Source: an uncultured cyanobacterium
GTDB taxonomy: Bacteria > Cyanobacteriota > Cyanobacteriia > Cyanobacteriales > Cyanobacteriaceae
Assembly (NCBI GenBank): GCA_963710605.1
Contig: CAVQBA010000001.1
Span: 1-64,000, forward strand
Direction of reading: 5' to 3'
Length of the DNA: 64,000 bases
Shown: piece by piece, positions 1-10,285 of the stretch
How positions within the stretch are numbered: position 1 is the first letter of the stretch
Layout: each line of letters starts with the position of its first letter
Notes under the pieces: generated by a model
Seen by the model: the letters and a program-made list of their open reading frames with translations, nothing else
What the model was told of the DNA's origin: nothing
Database searches by the model: none
Program-made: the position numbers and the translations under genes

Positions 1-93
1 ATCTGATACTAGTAATTTACACAACAATGATTTAAAGCACATTCATATAGTGTATATTTTACATAACAATAATTAACTTCTAAAATTATTCTA

Positions 94-1411
94 TCAGATG
101 TCTTTAAAGTTTCCTACAGATGGGTCAAAATTGACTTTACAAGTACCAGTTGAACCATTTCTATTCTTACCCACAATTATCTCCGTAACCCCTGTATCTT
201 TTGTATTTGAGTTATAGTATTCATCTCGGTAAAGAAGTAAACCTAAGTCCATATCCTGCTCTATATCCCCCGAATCTTTAATATCACCCATAGAAGGGCG
301 TTTATTGCTTTGCCCTTCAACTCCTCGGTTTATTTGGGCTAAAACGATAAAAGGAACATCAAACATTTTAGCGATGTCTTTACACGCTCCTGAATATTTA
401 CCAATAGCTTGAGATCTATTCCTGCACTTCTATCCCCTAATTTTTGGATATAATCTAATACGACTAAACCTATTTCTCCCTTTTCGGGGGCAACTGTATG
501 CCACGTAATACAGAACGCATTTTGGCAGGAGTTAATTGACTTGCAGGAGTATCATCAATAATTATTGGTAGTTGTGACACCTGCTCTAACGAAGATACTA
601 AAAGCTCATATTCTTCTTCATAAATTTGATTGTGTATCAGTCGATGAGAATCAATACCTGTGTGCATTGAAAGAAATCTTTTAGTCAACTGTTCGTGACT
701 CATCTCCGCACTAAAGATTACTACGGTTTGTGTTCTTTGGTACAATATAATTAGCAAAGTAACAACCAAGCCAACTTTTCCCCATAGATGGTATTTTTTT
801 TTAACCACAATCAAATCTTGTTTTATCAAACCGCCAATCAGTTGGTCAAGATTACTCAGTCCAGTAGAATAGGCATTCCTTGCTCCATCGCTAATTTTAC
901 CCAAGACTTCAATTAAACTATCACCAATAGATTTAGGGTCAAATCTACCTGTTTTCTTAGTAGTTATATCAAACAACTTCTGTTCGCTACTATCAAAGAC
1001 TGTTTCTAAATTGGCAGAAGTATCACTGGCTAGTTCAACTATTTCTTGTCCTGTTTGTCGCAATAAACGGCGTTGATACTTATTCATTACTAACTCAACA
1101 TAATGTTGAGCTGTTTTAGATGTTACTGTAGAATCTAATAATTGAGTTAACTTGAGAGTACCACCAACAGAATCTAAAAGATTATGGTCTTGTAACCAAG
1201 TGCTGATAGTAGTTAAATCAGTCGGTTTGTTTTGACGATATATTTCTAGAGCAAATTCATAAATCTTTTGATGAGCAGAAAGGGAAAAAGCATCGGCAGG
1301 AAGCTGTGATGCAATTAAACCGATAATTTTTGGGTCAAATAGAATACTACCAAGAATTTGTTCTTCGGCTTCTATATTTGCTAGGAGCTTATTTTGATTA
1401 ATCGTCTTCAT
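94..1411 (-). pseudogene. dnaB: DnaB-family replicative helicase (element-encoded), split by about four frameshifts; real decay or sequencing error
   Basis: N-terminal NIEAEEQILGSIL. Walker A remnant PSMGKS and VVLDYIQ in shifted frames; FSAEMS; C-terminal LAQINR..RPSMGDIKDSGDIEQDMD..GKNRNG. ORFs 470..1411 and 94..366 join into one protein. Confidence 0.85.
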
Positions 1412-2252
1412 TACGGAATAAGTTACTAAGGGCTTTTAATTTATCGTTGCTAATTAATTTTTGGTCAGAAGGAGTTGATTTACTGACTATTTGTTGATGT
1501 TCGGGTTTGGTAACTTCAGGTGTAGATGATTGGTGATTCCATCCTTCTTTAATCGCTTTGTTTAACCATCCCCCTGCGTTACTAACCTTGGACTGTGCTA
1601 ATTGTTCCTTCAAGGCAGAAATAGCTTCTAATACTTGTTGCTCTTCTGCTTGTTTGATAGTTTTTTTTAAAGTGGGATTAAGTTTAACACCTAATTCTTT
1701 TAGCTCCTTTTCAATTGAAACAGTAGAAGTTTGAGGTGGACTTGTCAAAGGAGGAACTTTAGTCATACGACTAATGGGGATAACTTTTTCTGCTATCTCT
1801 TGTTCTTTAACTTTAGTAAGTAGTCGTTCATTTTCTTTTTGTAATCTTTCTACTTGGTCTTGTAGTTGATAGACTCGATATACTTGTCCTGCAAGAGCTT
1901 CATTCTTTTTCTTTAGTTCTTTGTTTTCATTTTCTACCCGTTTGAGTCGCTCTTGTAACTTCGTGATGATTTTACCTTGGGCGGTAGAATTAGGTTTATT
2001 GAGCGGTTTAACAGGCATAGAATTTTGTTGACTACGAAGTTCTGCCACTCGTTGCTTCAACTCAGGATATTTATATAAATAACTCACACTGACTTGGGCT
2101 TCTCTGGCTACAGTGGCAAAGTTAATCTTGGCATTGATTTTGAGTAACTTTTCTATTGCTTCATGAACACGATTACGGGATTCTTCTTTTCTTTTCTCCT
2201 GAGTGGATTTAAGGGTTTCAATTAGTTGTTCTCTAATATCAAAGTCTGCCAT
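1398..2252 (-). CDS. Tn554 TnpC / DUF6262-like protein with coiled coil and extra C-terminal domain
   Basis: AIEKL..KINFATVAREAQVSVSYLY..ELKQRV HTH-like motif, then a long coiled coil; located after the recombinases. Confidence 0.75.
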   Translation of the reverse strand: MADFDIREQLIETLKSTQEKRKEESRNRVHEAIEKLLKINAKINFATVAREAQVSVSYLYKYPELKQRVAELRSQQNSMPVKPLNKPNSTAQGKIITKLQERLKRVENENKELKKKNEALAGQVYRVYQLQDQVERLQKENERLLTKVKEQEIAEKVIPISRMTKVPPLTSPPQTSTVSIEKELKELGVKLNPTLKKTIKQAEEQQVLEAISALKEQLAQSKVSNAGGWLNKAIKEGWNHQSSTPEVTKPEHQQIVSKSTPSDQKLISNDKLKALSNLFRNEDD

Positions 2253-4237
2253 TATGCTACCTCGTGTTGTAATGACTGAATAATCTTGTTAAGGGTGTCG
2301 GCTTGTCTGCCAAACTGCTCGACTAAAACATTTTGCCCATTGGCATTAGCTGTAGATTGTTTTTTCCTTAGCTCATCTCTAACTTTGATATATTGGTCAA
2401 GTTTATCGGGAGTAGCGACAAAATGATTGCAAGTATAACAAGCTCTGAACTTATGACAATCTTGGTCTAAATCCAGTCCACAATAACCATAAATGGGCGT
2501 GTTAATATGTGTTCCAGAGAGTTCTAACTTATGAGCAGTAGGATTATCCCAGAACGATTTAGGGAAGGATTCATAAGGTACTTGTTTACCTTCTGCATTA
2601 ACTAAGGCTTTTTGAATATGTCCTGCTTCTTTATTAATGAGTTCACAACTAACTTTGGTATAGTAAGTGCTAGTGGTAGCAAAATGTTTATGTCCTGCCC
2701 ATGCACTCACTACCGCTAAATCATGTCCTTGTTCAAAAAGATTAGTTAAGCGAGTAGAACGTAATATTTTGTTTATAAAGGTTGCTAGTTGTCCATTTTC
2801 ATCTCGGATGTCTAAAGTAGTAATTAGAGTTCTTATACTTTTCATTAATGGATGTGAATCATTACTTTGTACAACCTTCTTAACAGGTACTAGATTAGGT
2901 TGAGATGCTTTTGTTGAAGATAGACCGTGATAATGACAGAACAAATAATCATATTCATCCCCCCATAGATTTTTAACATAATCTAGCTGTTCTTGAACAA
3001 CTTTGGCGATAGTTCTACTAATAGGTATTTCATGGTAATCTTTATTTTTTGGTCTGTACCAACGTAGTTTCCAATATTGTCCTTCTTGTATTAAACAATC
3101 CTGTTTGAGTTGAGCTAGTTCAGATGGACGCATTGCTCCAAAATAGCAGATTAGATATATTCGAGCGATGGGGTCTGGTAAAATATGTAAATTGGCTTCT
3201 ATTTGCTCTGTAACTTTTTGTGATAGGGGATCTGGATTGCCTCGGCGACGTTTAGGATAGTCTTCATCTCGAATAATATCTTGGTCAATATCAAACCAAC
3301 CCTTAACTGTACCCACAAAGAAAAAATCTCTTAATGGAGTTAACTTGGATTTAGTAACTTTTTTCTCTTTTGATAGGTAGTCAAGAAAAACTGTACGATT
3401 AATCTGTTCAAAATCACTAATAGCAGTAGTTTGTAAGTAAATAGATAATGAGCGGAAGGCGACTAGAACATGGTTGATTGTTCCAAAAGCCTTTTCTATT
3501 TTGCATAAATGTTCGACATACTGCTTAGCTTTGTCTTTCAACCATTGTTGCTTAATCTGACTGAAGTTAGCGATGGAATGTGTTAAATTTTTTGGGTTGT
3601 AGTTGAGATTAAGGTTTCTCAAATCCCATCGCTCATCTTGCCATTGAAATGGTTTTATATGTCTGTCTTGTTGTGTGAAATAACTTAAATTTACTTGATT
3701 TAACTCAATATAATCGTATTGAGTTTTACGACAACTTCGACAACTAAATGTCTTTTTGTTTTGCTTATTAATTCCTGCAATATACATATCCATTGCATTA
3801 CATTCAGGACAAACAAAGCCTTCTATCCTATGATTCCGATACCAGACCACACCTTTATTCGTTGGGTCTTCAATGGCTTCATAACCACCTTTGATATTGC
3901 ATGAATCCTGCTGTATTTTTTGGCAGTGAGGACATCGAAATTGCCTTTTATTATTGGGTTGCTTAATTCCTCCTACTACCATTCCTAAATGATTACATTC
4001 AGGGCAGATAAACTCACCGTGATAGTCTTGTCCCCAATCAACCTGTTCATCAATCAATCTATCTGTTAAATAACGAGAACGATTGTTCAAATTAATTGAA
4101 GAAACGACTGAACCTCTGCAATTTGAGCATCGAAATTGTTGCTTACCATTATTCAGCCCCCCTAATTTCAAAGGCATTTCATTGCATTTAGGGCAGATAA
4201 ATTCTCCTTGATAGTCTTGTTTCCAATTAATTTCCAT
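2252..4237 (-). CDS. Tyrosine recombinase (Tn554 TnpB-like) with three N-terminal zinc-ribbon repeats
   Basis: GAMRPSE, KILR, AGH..TYY; C-terminal GYC..C..ACYTC motif. The ATG at 4237 overlaps the upstream stop and is a likelier start than 4270. Confidence 0.85.
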   Translation of the reverse strand: MEINWKQDYQGEFICPKCNEMPLKLGGLNNGKQQFRCSNCRGSVVSSINLNNRSRYLTDRLIDEQVDWGQDYHGEFICPECNHLGMVVGGIKQPNNKRQFRCPHCQKIQQDSCNIKGGYEAIEDPTNKGVVWYRNHRIEGFVCPECNAMDMYIAGINKQNKKTFSCRSCRKTQYDYIELNQVNLSYFTQQDRHIKPFQWQDERWDLRNLNLNYNPKNLTHSIANFSQIKQQWLKDKAKQYVEHLCKIEKAFGTINHVLVAFRSLSIYLQTTAISDFEQINRTVFLDYLSKEKKVTKSKLTPLRDFFFVGTVKGWFDIDQDIIRDEDYPKRRRGNPDPLSQKVTEQIEANLHILPDPIARIYLICYFGAMRPSELAQLKQDCLIQEGQYWKLRWYRPKNKDYHEIPISRTIAKVVQEQLDYVKNLWGDEYDYLFCHYHGLSSTKASQPNLVPVKKVVQSNDSHPLMKSIRTLITTLDIRDENGQLATFINKILRSTRLTNLFEQGHDLAVVSAWAGHKHFATTSTYYTKVSCELINKEAGHIQKALVNAEGKQVPYESFPKSFWDNPTAHKLELSGTHINTPIYGYCGLDLDQDCHKFRACYTCNHFVATPDKLDQYIKVRDELRKKQSTANANGQNVLVEQFGRQADTLNKIIQSLQHEVA

Positions 4238-5717
4238 TACTGTTGCCCTCCAACCCTTGAATACGAACAATTAATCTTTCTTTATCATCGGTAAGTCCTT
4301 TACTTTGTCTAACTAAACCCAAATTAGTAGCTATCTCCAATTCCTCATCTATTCTCTGTAAGTCTTGTTTGAGGTAGTTTAGGTCATCCGTGGAAGTGAG
4401 CCAATGTTCACATTGCCAACAAGCATTAACAGTTTGACAGGGTGATTTTAAAACAGGGCGATGACATTCCCCATAGTTCGTCGTTACCTGATACATTTTT
4501 CTTCGCATTAACTCAGTAATAACATTTTTGGGTTTATGTTCTTTTACTATCTTTCCTGTACTGTCAACGTACTTTGTACTCTGCATTAATTCCTGATACT
4601 CTTCTCCCACTACCTCCTTAAGTAAATGTTTGTAGTAGTTCTGCATATCGGGAGAACGGTGACGTAGATACTTTTGAATAATTAAGTCTCTTACTCCTGC
4701 ATTAGTCATTACCGTTGCCACAGTCTTTCTGAATTGGTGAGAACGAAAATGCCAAAGATTTCCTTCTTTTGTACAGATATTTTGTTCCTCTGCCAGTTTA
4801 TTAAGCCAACGACTAAAGCCATCTACTTTCATTATTCTAGGAGCAGGGTTATATTTTCCAAATATACCATCGTTGCTACCGAACAGATTATGATAAGTAT
4901 CACCAAAGTGTTCTCGAATAAAATCTTGTTGTTCTTTAATAACGGCTACAAGTTCTTCACAGATAGGTAATTCATCCTCTGTCTTATACTTTTCTGTCAG
5001 AAATCTCAACCGCCATTCACTCCCTCTCTTACGTAAACAGTCTAAAGGTAAATTCAGTAGTTCTCCTATGCGTAATCCTGTTGCTCGAATGATTAACACC
5101 ATTCTCTGCTTTGGTGAGGGAAGCAAATGCAAGTGTTCATCTAGCTGTTGCCATACTTCTTCGGGGATGTATTCTACTTCGTCATTCTTTGCTTGAGAAC
5201 CATGATACTTACCTTTAAACCAATAAGTATTGACATCCAACCAACCTTCTTGCCGACAAAGGTTAAAGAAGTTGATCAATGTCATATAACGTAAAGAGAT
5301 ACTTCTTTGGGATAAAGGTTTTTTTGTCTGTTTGCTTTTCGTTGAATGTAAGTAGTAATCGTATTCATCTAATAGTTGTTCATTGATATCTTCTACACTA
5401 TAAACAGACTTAGTTTTCAAAAAGATAGAGAACTCCCTCAAAGAAGCAACATCATTCTTTAGATACATTGCCGAATAATTACGTTTAGCCCGAATCAATA
5501 TGTAGAGCTTAGTCAGCAGCTTCAACCAATCTTGTTGAATTTTATCAAATCTAATAGTTAAAACTTTTTGATGTTGATTCACACTTAACCCCAAATCTTC
5601 AATGGTTCGCCAAACATCTTTTTGTAGCAAAGGATTATTTAATAACTCTCTAGCAGACTCATTCTGTTCTACTAACCATAACTCAGGTTGGCTATTCCAA
5701 TCTGGTATTGCATTCAT
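4227..5717 (-). CDS. Tyrosine recombinase (Tn554 TnpB-like)
   Basis: TGLRIGE, HQFR, LRHRSPDMQNYY catalytic set; C-terminal GEC..C..ACWQC motif. Confidence 0.9.
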   Translation of the reverse strand: MNAIPDWNSQPELWLVEQNESARELLNNPLLQKDVWRTIEDLGLSVNQHQKVLTIRFDKIQQDWLKLLTKLYILIRAKRNYSAMYLKNDVASLREFSIFLKTKSVYSVEDINEQLLDEYDYYLHSTKSKQTKKPLSQRSISLRYMTLINFFNLCRQEGWLDVNTYWFKGKYHGSQAKNDEVEYIPEEVWQQLDEHLHLLPSPKQRMVLIIRATGLRIGELLNLPLDCLRKRGSEWRLRFLTEKYKTEDELPICEELVAVIKEQQDFIREHFGDTYHNLFGSNDGIFGKYNPAPRIMKVDGFSRWLNKLAEEQNICTKEGNLWHFRSHQFRKTVATVMTNAGVRDLIIQKYLRHRSPDMQNYYKHLLKEVVGEEYQELMQSTKYVDSTGKIVKEHKPKNVITELMRRKMYQVTTNYGECHRPVLKSPCQTVNACWQCEHWLTSTDDLNYLKQDLQRIDEELEIATNLGLVRQSKGLTDDKERLIVRIQGLEGNSNGN

Positions 5718-6799
5718 TCTTCTTCCTCCTGTTCGATTACTCTTCGTAAGTCTGCTTCTTCAATCACATGAGAATACACATCTAACGTCGTTTGAATACT
5801 GGCGTGTCCTAATAAATATTTGACTCTATCAGGAGAATAACCTGCTTTGAGCAAACGAGTGGCATAAGTATGACGAAATAAATGGGCATAAACCTTGATT
5901 CCCGTTTTTTGGGATAATCGAGTAAACATGACACTCAAAACATCAGGACTGATGGGCTTACCTATTTCTCCTTCCCAAATATTGATAAATACGTACTCTG
6001 ACTCTATTTCAGGATATTCATAAAGCAGATAATCGTTGTACATTTGGATTAGCTCTGGTATGACAGGAATCGTTCGTTCTTGCCCTTTAGCCAAAGCACC
6101 ATTTGGGTTATCTTTTCTTTTTACTACTTTAATGTAGTTTTCTCCAAAATCACTCACATCCTCATGTTTTAGACCTAGTATTTCTCCTTTACGCATTCCC
6201 GTACCATTAAGCATAAGGATAATCAACTTGTCTCTTAAACGATTACAGGCATTGACCAATACTTCTACCTGCTCATCTGTTAAGCATCCTGCAAACTTTT
6301 TCTTGCCTTTGAGCTTAACTAATTTTTGACGAACGGGCTTAGTTTTAGCAATACCTGTGAGTAGTCCTTTACTACTTCTGTTTGTGATGCCATAGGGTAA
6401 ATGAAATCTGTCGAACTGTTTGAAGTCCACAGTCTTGTTGGCAATATGATATTCGTAAAACTGTGTTACCCCCGTAATCATACGATTAACGGTACTTTCA
6501 CTTCTAATGGCTTCTATTCCTTGTAGATTGATGACAGCTTTATCTCCAACTCTGAGCCAGTGAGCATAGTTTTCTAAATCGGAGACATTTACTTCCCTCC
6601 AATCCAAACATTGTTGTTGAAGAAAAAGCCACCAGTATCTTAAATCGTGTCCATAAGATTTGATGGTATTAGGTGATTTGGTTGTAGTCATAAACGTCAA
6701 AAAACGTTGTATTGGTTCGACAATTTGATAGTCCTCATCAAACATCAACCAAACTGGTTCGTTTGTAACGGGATCTATTCCCTTTTGCAAAGACAACAT
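5714..6799 (-). CDS. Tyrosine recombinase (Tn554 TnpA-like)
   Basis: SPNTIKSYGHDL, GMRKGE, HLFRHTYAT, LLGHASIQTTLDVYSH. Confidence 0.9.
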   Translation of the reverse strand: MLSLQKGIDPVTNEPVWLMFDEDYQIVEPIQRFLTFMTTTKSPNTIKSYGHDLRYWWLFLQQQCLDWREVNVSDLENYAHWLRVGDKAVINLQGIEAIRSESTVNRMITGVTQFYEYHIANKTVDFKQFDRFHLPYGITNRSSKGLLTGIAKTKPVRQKLVKLKGKKKFAGCLTDEQVEVLVNACNRLRDKLIILMLNGTGMRKGEILGLKHEDVSDFGENYIKVVKRKDNPNGALAKGQERTIPVIPELIQMYNDYLLYEYPEIESEYVFINIWEGEIGKPISPDVLSVMFTRLSQKTGIKVYAHLFRHTYATRLLKAGYSPDRVKYLLGHASIQTTLDVYSHVIEEADLRRVIEQEEEE

Positions 6800-6904
6800 A
6801 AACTTTACACAATGAAGAAATATATGTATAAGCTTAACATGTTATTAGGTAAAAAAAAGGGGTCTTTGTTGTTGTTGTTTATTATTAAATATTTGTATTG
6901 TATA

Positions 6905-7528
6905 ACCCATATCTAACCCAATCATTTTCTTTGTTTGAGGTAGTTCTGGGGTTATATCTCTTACGTCTAGCTTCAAGCAAAACTGAGAATAATAGCCGTC
7001 GCTTCTCCTAACAATACGGACTCTTTGTATTTGGAATTCTTGGAAATAAAATAAATCTCTCGAACCAATTAACTTTAGAGTACCGATATTGTTACCGTCT
7101 GTGAAGGTTATTCTTTTGTTGTCTCTATCTAACTTCCATCCTGACTTTTTCAACTCGATACTTCGTGTTCGCTTAGAAAACTGAGGATAACCCGCTTGGT
7201 GCGCGTTCCCTTGCGCCTGTCGGCGGCGCGGGGTCGCATCCGCTTTCTTCCCTTTTATGTCTTTTTTACAATTATCATAAAATTTGGCAATTGCCGACCA
7301 TGCTCTTTCTCCAGCTTGTTGACACGCTGTTGAATTTAATTGTTTGACAAAAGAAAACTCTTTTCTCAAATCTGTAGTATGACGATAAATATCTTTTTTG
7401 CCTACTCCTCTTAAGTCCATCCATAAACGAATACATTTATTACGCACGAACTTTACGGTACGAATACCTTCGTCGATTGCTTTAAATTGTTCTGGCTTTC
7501 CTTTTAATTTGTATTCTAATAAAAACAT
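6905..7528 (-). pseudogene. tnpB: IS605-family RNA-guided nuclease TnpB, truncated at RuvC-I (IGLDMG), with a 17-codon in-frame insert
   Basis: EYKLKGK..AIDEGIRT..FVRNKC..LNSTACQ..ERAW..GYPQF..ELKKSGWKL..GTLKLIG..VRIVRRSDGYY..IGLDMG. The following codons (YTIQIFNNKQQQQ...) are non-homologous read-through. Confidence 0.9.
7193..7243 (-). repeat. ~50-bp GC-rich structured dispersed repeat (SDR-like) inserted in frame in tnpB
   Basis: Aligns with the copies at 33396 and 48705; separates KGKK from GYP. Confidence 0.75.
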
Positions 7529-7621
7529 TTTACGCTTTTAACTACCGCATAAAACATTTTACCATACAGTTAGAAAAGTCGTCTTGAAAGACGAGGCTTT
7601 ATACCCAAAAGTTTTGGTAAA

Positions 7622-7924
7622 ATAAGTCAAACGCACGTCTTTCGTAAGCTAGGCAATGCTAATGGTATATCTGCTGGTATTCCTGATAGCTTACGTTGTA
7701 AGTCTTTAGGACACTCTGAAGCGATTAATCGCAAACATTATCAAACGTGGAGTCATCAAACGACTATTGATTTATTTAAAAACGCTAAACGTCAACCTAT
7801 TGATTTACAATCGTCCTTAAAACTAGCTAAAGCACCCGATAGCAACGTCAGTAAAAATCAAGTGTACGAACTTATTGCGAATATCTATCAGATTGATTAC
7901 GACGAGCTTATTAAGCTACTCTAA
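7622..7924 (+). pseudogene. C-terminal ~100 codons of a tyrosine integrase (island integrase), 5' part separated by the IS
   Basis: Manual translation ISQTHVFRKLG..CKSLGHSEAINRKHY..LIKLL* shows H-x-x-R, LGH and catalytic Y; begins directly at the IS TTAC target. Confidence 0.8.
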
Positions 7925-8238
7925 ATTACTTCTGTCAGAAATTAAAGGTGAGGTCGTTATCAATAGCTATAATGATAATAGTTAGTTAAAAATAAAATAT
8001 TAAATTTTAGTCAGCTTGACTTAGAGGTCATCTTTGATGTGTGAGAAATAGCAGAATAAAATTTAATTAAAGCATAATCGCTCTCTATTGTGCCAGTTCA
8101 GAAAGTGTCATATTGTAGGTTGACGTTGTACTTTTTGATTAAGTGTTCTACACTAGAATGAGTAAGTTTTGAGTAATTGCTACTAATTTTAAGTGTTGTA
8201 AGGGATAAAATACCATACGACGCTAGGAGTAGGGGCAA

Positions 8239-8312
8239 CGAGTGCGAAGGGAATCGAACCCCCGACAACCAGAACCGGAATCTGGTGCTCTATCCGACTG
8301 AGCTACGCACCC
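8239..8312 (-). tRNA. trnR-CCG: tRNA-Arg(CCG), CCA not encoded
   Basis: GGGTGCG/CGCACTC acceptor stem, GCTC/GAGC D arm, CCAGA-TTCCGGT-TCTGG anticodon arm, GGTTCGATTCC T arm. Confidence 0.97.
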
Positions 8313-8407
8313 AACTAATTAATAAGATAGCATTGATAATTGACAATTGACAAATAAAAATTGAAAAAAATTGAAAGTTGAAAAGAACTTTTATTGAACT
8401 AAACAAT

Positions 8408-9394: not shown

Positions 9395-10285
9395 ATGACA
9401 GTAAGTATAGATTCTATTCATAACGTAGTTGCGATCGAAGGTCACTATTGGCAATGGCGTGGAGAAAAAGTTTATTATGTTGAGGCGGGAGCAAAAAATA
9501 ATGACAAACCTGCTTTGTTATTAGTACATGGTTTTGGTGCTTCAACTGATCATTGGCGTAAAAATATTCATCAATTACAAAATGAATTTAATGTCTGGGC
9601 GATCGATTTATTAGGCTTTGGACGATCGGCAAAACCTGCGGGGGAATATAGTGGCAAACTATGGCAAGAACAATTAAACGATTTCATTACCGAGGTGATT
9701 CAACAACGTACTGTAGTAGCTGGTAATTCTTTAGGTGGATATGCTTGTTTATGTGCAGGGGCGAATTATCCTGATAATGTAGCCGGGGTAATTTTATTAA
9801 ACAGTGCAGGGCAGTTTTCTGATACAACAGTTGAAGAACCAAATTTGTTTCAAAAAGTCAGTGGCTGGACAATGCAAAGACGTATTGTCACTTATTTTCT
9901 GTTTAATAGATTACGTAACAAAAAAAATATTCGTAGTACTTTAGAAAAAGTATATTTAGATCCAACTACGATTACAGATCAATTAGTAGATGACATATAT
10001 CGTCCTTCTTGTGATAAAGGTGCATTAGAGGTATTTGGTTCGGTATTTAAAAGTCCTCAAGGAGAAAAAGTTGATGAGTTACTAGCTAAACTTAAAGTAC
10101 CTTTACTTAATATTTGGGGTGAATCAGATCCTTGGATACGTTGCCAAGAAAGAAGTTTAAAGTTTGAGCAGTATTATCCTAGCATTGAACAAACTTATGT
10201 CAAAGCTGGTCATTGTCCTCATGATGAAGTACCAGAAGAAGTTAATCGTACTATCAGCGATTGGATGAACAAAATTAATCTATAA
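9395..10285 (+). CDS. Alpha/beta fold hydrolase
   Basis: LLVHGFGAS, DLLGFGRS, GNSLGG nucleophile, AGHCPHDE. Confidence 0.92.
   Translation: MTVSIDSIHNVVAIEGHYWQWRGEKVYYVEAGAKNNDKPALLLVHGFGASTDHWRKNIHQLQNEFNVWAIDLLGFGRSAKPAGEYSGKLWQEQLNDFITEVIQQRTVVAGNSLGGYACLCAGANYPDNVAGVILLNSAGQFSDTTVEEPNLFQKVSGWTMQRRIVTYFLFNRLRNKKNIRSTLEKVYLDPTTITDQLVDDIYRPSCDKGALEVFGSVFKSPQGEKVDELLAKLKVPLLNIWGESDPWIRCQERSLKFEQYYPSIEQTYVKAGHCPHDEVPEEVNRTISDWMNKINL

Follow-up and report, generated by a model that had tools for sequence, protein, structure and literature searches.

A Tn554-related mobile element with three tyrosine recombinases and a DnaB-like helicase, found at the RuvC-I codons of tnpB in an uncultured cyanobacterium

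The window analyzed here is a 64,000-nucleotide stretch from an uncultured member of the Cyanobacteriaceae (assembly GCA_963710605.1, contig CAVQBA010000001.1, positions 1 to 64,000 of the forward strand). At its start lies an element of ~6.9 kb that encodes three tyrosine recombinases, a TnpC-like DUF6262 protein, and a DnaB-like helicase, and that abuts the 5' half of a tnpB gene. The features are listed below by window position.

1-93, minus strand: right end of the element, placed by alignment with the second copy of the element in contig C2
94-1411, minus strand: DnaB-like helicase gene in two frames (1411-470 and 366-94), recognized by domain matches; intact (436-467 amino acids) at the same place in relatives
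1398-2252, minus strand: TnpC-like DUF6262 protein, 284 amino acids, with a long C-terminal extension (Pfam DUF6262, E 1e-12; E 5e-16 to the 121-amino acid DUF6262 protein of L038)
2252-4270, minus strand: recombinase 3, long TnpB(Tn554)-like protein with N-terminal zinc ribbons, 672 amino acids (E 8e-23 to the 637-amino acid TnpB of L038)
4227-5717, minus strand: recombinase 2, short TnpB(Tn554)-like tyrosine recombinase, 496 amino acids (E 1e-42 to the same TnpB of L038)
5714-6799, minus strand: recombinase 1, TnpA/Xer-like tyrosine recombinase, 361 amino acids (Pfam Phage_integrase, E 5.2e-30)
6845-6905, minus strand: left end of the element, with an 11-bp terminal inverted repeat (6905-6895), an A+T-rich stretch, and a CAA-repeat run (~6878-6866); kept in 10 of 10 related loci
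6906-6911, minus strand: proposed attL crossover spacer, the six target bases adjoining the left end; identical in the intact sister tnpB, with a layout predicted from eight complete relatives
6906-7528, minus strand: 5' half of tnpB (IS200/IS605-type, residues 1-208), 99.3% identical to the intact C6 sister and breaking off two bases into the second Gly codon of RuvC-I GxDxG
7529-7620, minus strand: upstream end of the host tnpB insertion sequence; likeness to the sister copy ends at 7620

In printed alignments, recombinase 2 retains Arg, His-x-x-Arg, and His/Tyr, and recombinase 3 has Lys in place of His in His-x-x-Arg. Among the proteins of the element there are also weak NCBIfam matches to gamma-mobile-trio GmtY and to the VPA1267 family. 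In relatives, e.g., L018:10671-12065, a full DnaB-like replicative helicase with both N- and C-terminal domains directly follows the TnpC-like gene; the dnaB of the window is either broken or mis-assembled. The contig itself starts two bases short of the last base of the element's terminal inverted repeat.

The host gene could be read closely against an intact relative. The minus-strand ORF at 7528-6845 encodes 227 amino acids and is TnpB-like through residue 208; its residues 5-210 match positions 2-205 of the 389-position NCBIfam profile guided_TnpB (NF040570) with an E value of 3.7e-20, at a score below the full-length cutoff of that profile because half of the protein is present. An intact sister tnpB in the same genome (420 amino acids, C6:584343-583084) is 99.3% identical at the DNA level to window 6896-7620, and its protein carries Pfam OrfB_IS605 (1.9e-22) and TNB (2.8e-19). 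Against the solved ISDra2 TnpB, the sister protein aligns with an E value of 8.8e-32, and the Asp of its motif falls on chain residue 191 (hand count on the printed alignment), which we take to be the RuvC-I catalytic Asp. The Asp codon of the Gly-Leu-Asp-Met-Gly stretch in the window is at 6913-6911, and the switch from tnpB to the element, read on the minus strand against the sister copy, occurs between 6906 and 6905, i.e., the two sequences split two bases into the second Gly codon. Past 6905, the tnpB frame continues for 19 codons in A+T-rich DNA to a stop at 6847-6845. An initial annotation made from the sequence had placed the motif Asp at this codon, where the ORF and the sister alignment now agree, and had proposed that an element oriented like tnpB was inserted at its RuvC-I codons and truncated the nuclease gene; the sister comparison, which that annotation had suggested as a way to define the crossover, and the ISDra2 alignment bear these proposals out. 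Judged from its reading frame, the tnpB of the window is severed after RuvC-I and is thus set apart from RuvC-II/III, the zinc finger, and the 3' end of the gene.

Upstream of this tnpB, a plus-strand 3' piece of a tyrosine integrase gene (~7620-7925, read by eye) faces a tRNA-Arg(CCG) gene on the minus strand (8238-8313). The putative integrase fragment begins exactly at the end of the tnpB insertion sequence (7620), and on this by-eye reading of the integrase, window 7620-8313 resembles an older tRNA-associated island in which the tnpB element disrupted the integrase. Elsewhere in the genome, G000:C6:936500-944100 holds a cluster in which tnpB fragments belonging to the family of the window's tnpB are nested and inverted.

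A second copy of the element is present in the same genome, distributed over two contigs. Window 3195-6913 corresponds to the end of contig C5 at 99.8% (C5:328357-332074), window 1-3414 corresponds to the start of contig C2 at 98.3% (G000:C2:1-3410), and C5 and C2 overlap by 220 bp at 99.5%. The tnpB that hosts this second copy is 26% identical to the tnpB of the window (tblastn, aligned N-halves), and the element enters it at the same codon, in a Gly-Val-Asp-Leu-Gly stretch; both copies in this genome (2 of 2) are thus at tnpB RuvC-I. The N-half of the second tnpB on C5 covers guided_TnpB profile positions 1-202, and the piece past the element on C2 covers 202-350; by Pfam, HTH_OrfB_IS605 lies on the left, and OrfB_IS605 positions 23-112 and TNB lie on the right. 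As tnpB resumes with nothing lost, the gene is cleanly split and the second copy is an insertion, not a deletion. The 3' half of this second tnpB is itself split by two group II intron reverse-transcriptase genes (Pfam; L081, G000:C2, 4470-9465) and also holds an ORF that is IS630-like by eye, with the last tnpB piece at 9561-9875; mobile elements are here nested three levels deep. Between the two copies of the element, there are 26 substitutions and 17 small indels in the distal part and two substitutions and five indels in the proximal 3.7 kb, the indels being mainly 1-5 bases long and clustered near contig ends. These differences look like consensus errors near contig ends, and the broken dnaB of the window and the frameshifts of the second copy may be assembly errors instead of decay.

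The earlier expectation that the 3' half of tnpB would resume on the distal side holds for the second copy; for the copy in the window, the distal half is absent from the assembly, since contig C1 begins within the element's right end. None of the seven contigs (genome 84.9% complete) holds an unattached 3' half of the sister-type tnpB, and only two loci match the sister 3' half at 98% or more, both in C6 and both continuous across the site. One may suppose, then, that the locus in the window is not a simple insertion, i.e., that a deletion or rearrangement took the 3' half of tnpB, or that the assembly produced an artefact at a repeat. The start of the contig within the right end, the failure of a separate 3' half to assemble, and the many small indels near contig ends, where the assembly is imperfect, would all fit such a history. 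Against it, the left junction sits inside a 364-kb contig, and the same junction architecture occurs in a finished plasmid and in several independent assemblies. Moreover, the two C6 loci would share ~99% identity with the missing 3' half, and we infer that a repeat of this kind is enough by itself to explain the contig break. We consider a deletion, rearrangement, or artefact quite improbable and take the copy in the window as a simple insertion in what follows.

Relatives were sought with the 361-amino acid recombinase in genome contigs (10 loci), in metagenome contigs (six loci), in a plasmid database (one close match among 358 records), and in phylum, order, and family genome samples. The phylum sample gave 12 of 401 genomes at E ≤ 1e-60, and the order sample gave 21 of 401 at E ≤ 1e-120; at this latter threshold, the element is missing from all 19 genomes sampled from the family of the host. 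One related family is positive in 13 of 61 genomes. The relatives found in this way are all cyanobacterial. The five-gene block including DnaB recurs in most of them, and one subclade is without DnaB.

The insertion sites of these relatives were then compared in a tally of 37 distinct junctions, counted and de-duplicated by hand with several flanks read manually. Loci were merged as follows: L046 with L037; L049 and L063 with L015 and L024; L064, L016, and L019 with L017; L057 with L023; L055 and L090 with L054; L059 and L061 with L060; and L066 with L065. Left out of the tally were L039, L044, and L050 (flankless), L089 (partial), and L027-L036 (distant, 38-45% identity). Please note that the readings of the flanks of L083, L085, L086, L087, and L092 are tentative, and that the flanks of L020, L026, and L041, which are 33-37 amino acids long, were read by motif only.

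Eight of the 37 junctions are in tnpB, five of them at the RuvC-I codons and three near the C-terminus. The RuvC-I junctions are the two in this genome, one in the finished Chondrocystis plasmid AP018282.1 (L037), one in a metagenome contig (L040), and one in genome G401 (L079). In the plasmid, an IS200 tnpA and a tnpB N-half lead into the element, and the C-half follows with OrfB_IS605 positions 23-118 and TNB. In L079, the right flank is a tnpB 3' half starting from OrfB_IS605 position 23 and a group II intron reverse transcriptase/maturase forms the left one; the chimeric flanks suggest recombination between two element copies, and counting L079 as a tnpB junction needs a later rearrangement. 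The right side of L040 (8100-9377) has no canonical end and is directly followed by an intact-looking cytosine-5 methyltransferase gene that may be either cargo or the outcome of a recombination of two element copies. Near the tnpB C-terminus, there are two copies in two tnpB genes of G719 (L088 and L091; Pfam OrfB_IS605) and one in L041 (by motif only). The codon phase of the junction is identical in four different tnpB genes, whose N-halves stop at guided_TnpB profile positions 201-205 of 389, a coincidence far beyond chance.

Outside tnpB, GxDxG codons are also hit in motif I of two cytosine-5 methyltransferases and in one endonuclease V gene; 29 of the 37 junctions lie away from such codons. 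The methyltransferase of L018 resumes past the element at Pfam position 14 (the second such site, L020, is read by motif only), and the endonuclease V gene resumes at Pfam position 32 past an 11.7-kb element. In all seven GxDxG junctions with a left flank, the target frame enters the element in the direction of the recombinase genes. Other targets are a Strawberry-notch-like helicase, a RecD-like helicase, a photolyase, 23S-IVP-like genes, GIY-YIG genes, a P-loop-like stretch, one unnamed family, and unknown DNA. The three copies in 23S-IVP-like genes of G720 (L085, L090, and L092) are at the same motif of paralogues. The flanks of L045, L059, L078 (both sides), and L051 gave zero Pfam or NCBIfam matches and may resemble SAM-methyltransferase motif I. 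In a tree of recombinase 1 (quick method, SH-aLRT only), the targets are scattered over at least four subclades, and the tnpB-inserted plasmid element L037 falls in a well-supported clade with L045, which is inserted in an unrelated gene.

Both ends could be defined in eight elements, namely the C5/C2 copy, L037, L018, L015, L068, L077, L078, and L079. Their terminal 11-bp inverted repeats match at 7-10 of 11 positions, and their left and right six-base spacers differ at 0-2 of six positions, a low count that is partly circular since the right ends of L068, L077, L078, and L079 came from a search allowing at most two spacer mismatches; two of these four right ends are backed by resumption of the target gene. 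The motif-plus-spacer search found no right end in nine of 13 loci, which may carry extra cargo or be rearranged. Where the uninterrupted gene can be reconstructed, it equals the left flank, one six-base stretch, and the right flank; as there is only one six-base stretch in that gene, insertion contributed, besides the element, one more six-base stretch of slightly different sequence on the right. A degenerate 14-base word of the Gly-x-Asp-x-Gly targets occurs 129 times in this genome, 22 of them at the RuvC-I of the 28 tnpB-like loci. The six bases at the right junction of the second copy recur, behind two bases with which an Asp codon is complete, at the RuvC-I of another tnpB (C4:1256614), which is compatible with an earlier stay in a tnpB.

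Inverted arms flanking a 6-bp spacer are the layout of Xer/dif-type core sites. [quoted passage not shown] A circular or copied-out intermediate would carry the two 11-bp arms around a six-base spacer, and crossover with a target bearing a similar spacer, at positions that we infer from the layout of the complete elements, would leave the six bases of the target at the left junction and the similar, non-identical carried spacer at the right one. In the case of the window, the six bases comprise the final base of the Asp codon, the whole codon after it, and two bases from the Gly codon; together with the upstream Gly codon, they make up the degenerate word, which any Gly-x-Asp-x-Gly coding stretch can supply. 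Insertions in tnpB would survive because tnpB is dispensable, and tnpB would also offer many copies of the word. The DnaB-like helicase would be carried as conserved cargo, possibly with a role in copying of the element, which may be active at the present day.

How special tnpB is as a target needs to be weighed with some care. The initial annotation had seen it as the att site of the element and the element as a parasite of another transposon. That tnpB is a repeated target is clear from the eight junctions in 37 and from the RuvC-I sites in the plasmid, the metagenome, and G401. A stronger version of this claim, in which tnpB evolved as the dedicated attachment site and the element is a specialised IS200/IS605 parasite recognising tnpB as such, draws on the position of both copies in this genome at RuvC-I, on the five RuvC-I junctions with three more near the tnpB C-terminus, including those in two tnpB genes of G719, and on the ~3% expected for two tnpB hits under even use of the 129 motif sites (22/129 squared). 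However, 29 of the 37 junctions are outside tnpB, close relatives are found in methyltransferase, endonuclease V, helicase, photolyase, IVP, and GIY-YIG genes, the first two of these being GxDxG targets as well, and targets are scattered on the tree, with L037 in tnpB grouping with L045 in an unrelated gene; loss of insertions in essential genes could also inflate the share of tnpB without any recognition. We therefore regard a dedicated tnpB site as unlikely for the family. At the other extreme, insertion might be near-random, requiring only the last few bases before the left end, so that hits in tnpB would reflect abundance and dispensability. The very diverse targets across the family and the 28 tnpB-like loci of this genome speak for this, but those loci make up only 28 kb of 3.93 Mb (~0.7%), the codon phase is identical in the four tnpB N-halves (profile 201-205), and several copies per genome are at the same motif of paralogues (G000, G719, and G720), which leaves near-random insertion very improbable. 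What the junctions show is that tnpB is a recurrent target, one among several.

A bolder extension is conceivable, which we offer tentatively and hold to be doubtful. Each new site might be chosen through a heritable six-base "memory" of the preceding one, which the spacer would have taken over from the donor flank. A lineage would thereby be locked on the codons of one short catalytic motif in a selfish gene family with many copies; this would be tnpB RuvC-I in the present genome and, among relatives, the tnpB C-terminal motif, methyltransferase motif I, or IVP and GIY-YIG genes. The element of this genome would, on this view, be a true hyperparasite, moving among IS200/IS605 copies and disabling their RNA-guided nucleases while its own DnaB drives copy-out replication.

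TnpB, from which Cas12 descends, is encoded by one of the most abundant genes of prokaryotes. An element that repeatedly lands on the codons of the TnpB catalytic site would be a natural antagonist of RNA-guided nucleases, and the locus is a clear case of a transposon nested in a transposon. The short codon stretches of catalytic motifs are the most invariant DNA words among diverged paralogues and would therefore be portable landing sites after horizontal transfer. A travelling six-base spacer would provide a simple handle to retarget tyrosine-recombinase integration, and the conserved helicase bears on whether Tn554-like elements use copy-out.

As to prior work, this element is not described in the accessible part of the literature on Tn554-type and other tyrosine recombinases in cyanobacteria, which mentions one recombinase element in comM, and a search of the literature on DUF6262 found only unrelated work. 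No printed report of a tnpB target was found in the portions covered of the literature on tyrosine recombinases, TnpB, and cyanobacteria, including PMC13565253; the supplementary att and host tables of the GInt study might list similar cases.

Recombinase 1 is 36-39% identical over 93-99% of its length to TnpA-type plasmid proteins of Staphylococcaceae, Proteus, Mycobacterium, and others. One of these belongs to a Macrococcoides plasmid (L038) on which tnpA, the 637-amino acid tnpB, the 121-amino acid DUF6262 gene, and qacH form a unit beside a JAB-domain gene, which is the only radC link seen here. Both larger recombinases are homologous to the same region of the L038 TnpB (E 1e-42 and 8e-23), which represents the large Tn554 recombinase type with a Cys-rich C-terminal part. 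On these homologies, the element is a Tn554 relative whose large recombinase is duplicated; its recombination genes thereby number four, as in the layout of GInts and SEs, and a helicase is added. The proposal that it belongs to the Tn554 family is thus right as to relationship, but with three recombinases and DnaB, it is not a plain Tn554.

Homologues of the TnpA, TnpB, and TnpC of the Tn554 family (Tn554, Tn558, Tn6188, and Tn6674) are all found in the element. Like Tn554, it shows site- and orientation-specific insertion in coding sequence, short imperfect inverted repeats at its ends, and six bases at the right junction that resemble, and need not equal, those at the left. In contrast to Tn554, there are two TnpB-like recombinases instead of one, the TnpC-like protein is more than twice as long, the three-gene module is replaced by four recombination genes and dnaB, and the hosts are cyanobacterial. 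Tn554 targets radC, whereas the element targets GxDxG codons of tnpB and other genes. RIT elements likewise have three adjacent tyrosine recombinase genes. An assignment as an RIT element was considered and rejected: as given in the relevant portion of PMC10214605, RIT recombinases are 315-410 amino acids long, with 34-bp repeats and no TnpC-like gene, compared with 361, 496, and 672 amino acids, 11 bp, and a DUF6262 protein here.

The GInts (ginABCD; Bardaji et al. 2017, PMC5385486) are close in layout, by which likeness is judged here, as far as the main text of that paper describes it: three consecutive integrase genes and a small TnpC-like gene stand at the 5' end, ahead of cargo and a short A+T-rich 3' end. 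Excision of GInts as circles depends on all four genes. According to the same text, GInts encode three integrases and the TnpC-like GinD and have imperfect flanking repeats with a proposed 6-nt stagger, and integration rose tenfold when the att of the element was made more target-like. Imperfect flanking direct repeats and an insertion specificity shared by distant members are also common to GInts and the present family. The differences from that main text lie in the hosts named there, which are Proteobacteria, Verrucomicrobia, Bacteroidetes, and Firmicutes ("Cyanobacteria" occurs zero times), in the published targets, an ABC transporter gene and ssb, and in the repeats, which are 10-17 nt in GInts and six definable bases here (PMC5385486).

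The SEs (IntA-Tfp-IntB-Srap) resemble the element, on layout and in the section of PMC10214605 that describes them, in the order of ordinary recombinase, middle protein, large recombinase, and TnpC-like protein. In SEs and in Tn554-related elements, 6 bp of the donor left flank are copied to the new right junction (PMC10214605, same section), and the left and right six bases of our elements are compatible with such a carried 6-bp footprint. Two differences emerge from that section: Tfp is said to lack the catalytic residues that the 496-amino acid middle protein keeps here, and the published SE hosts are Gammaproteobacteria only. A copy-out model has been proposed for SEs, one of which is inside a gene of an IS3 element, as stated there (PMC10214605), and by analogy the resident helicase of the cyanobacterial element would make sense under copy-out of the SE type.
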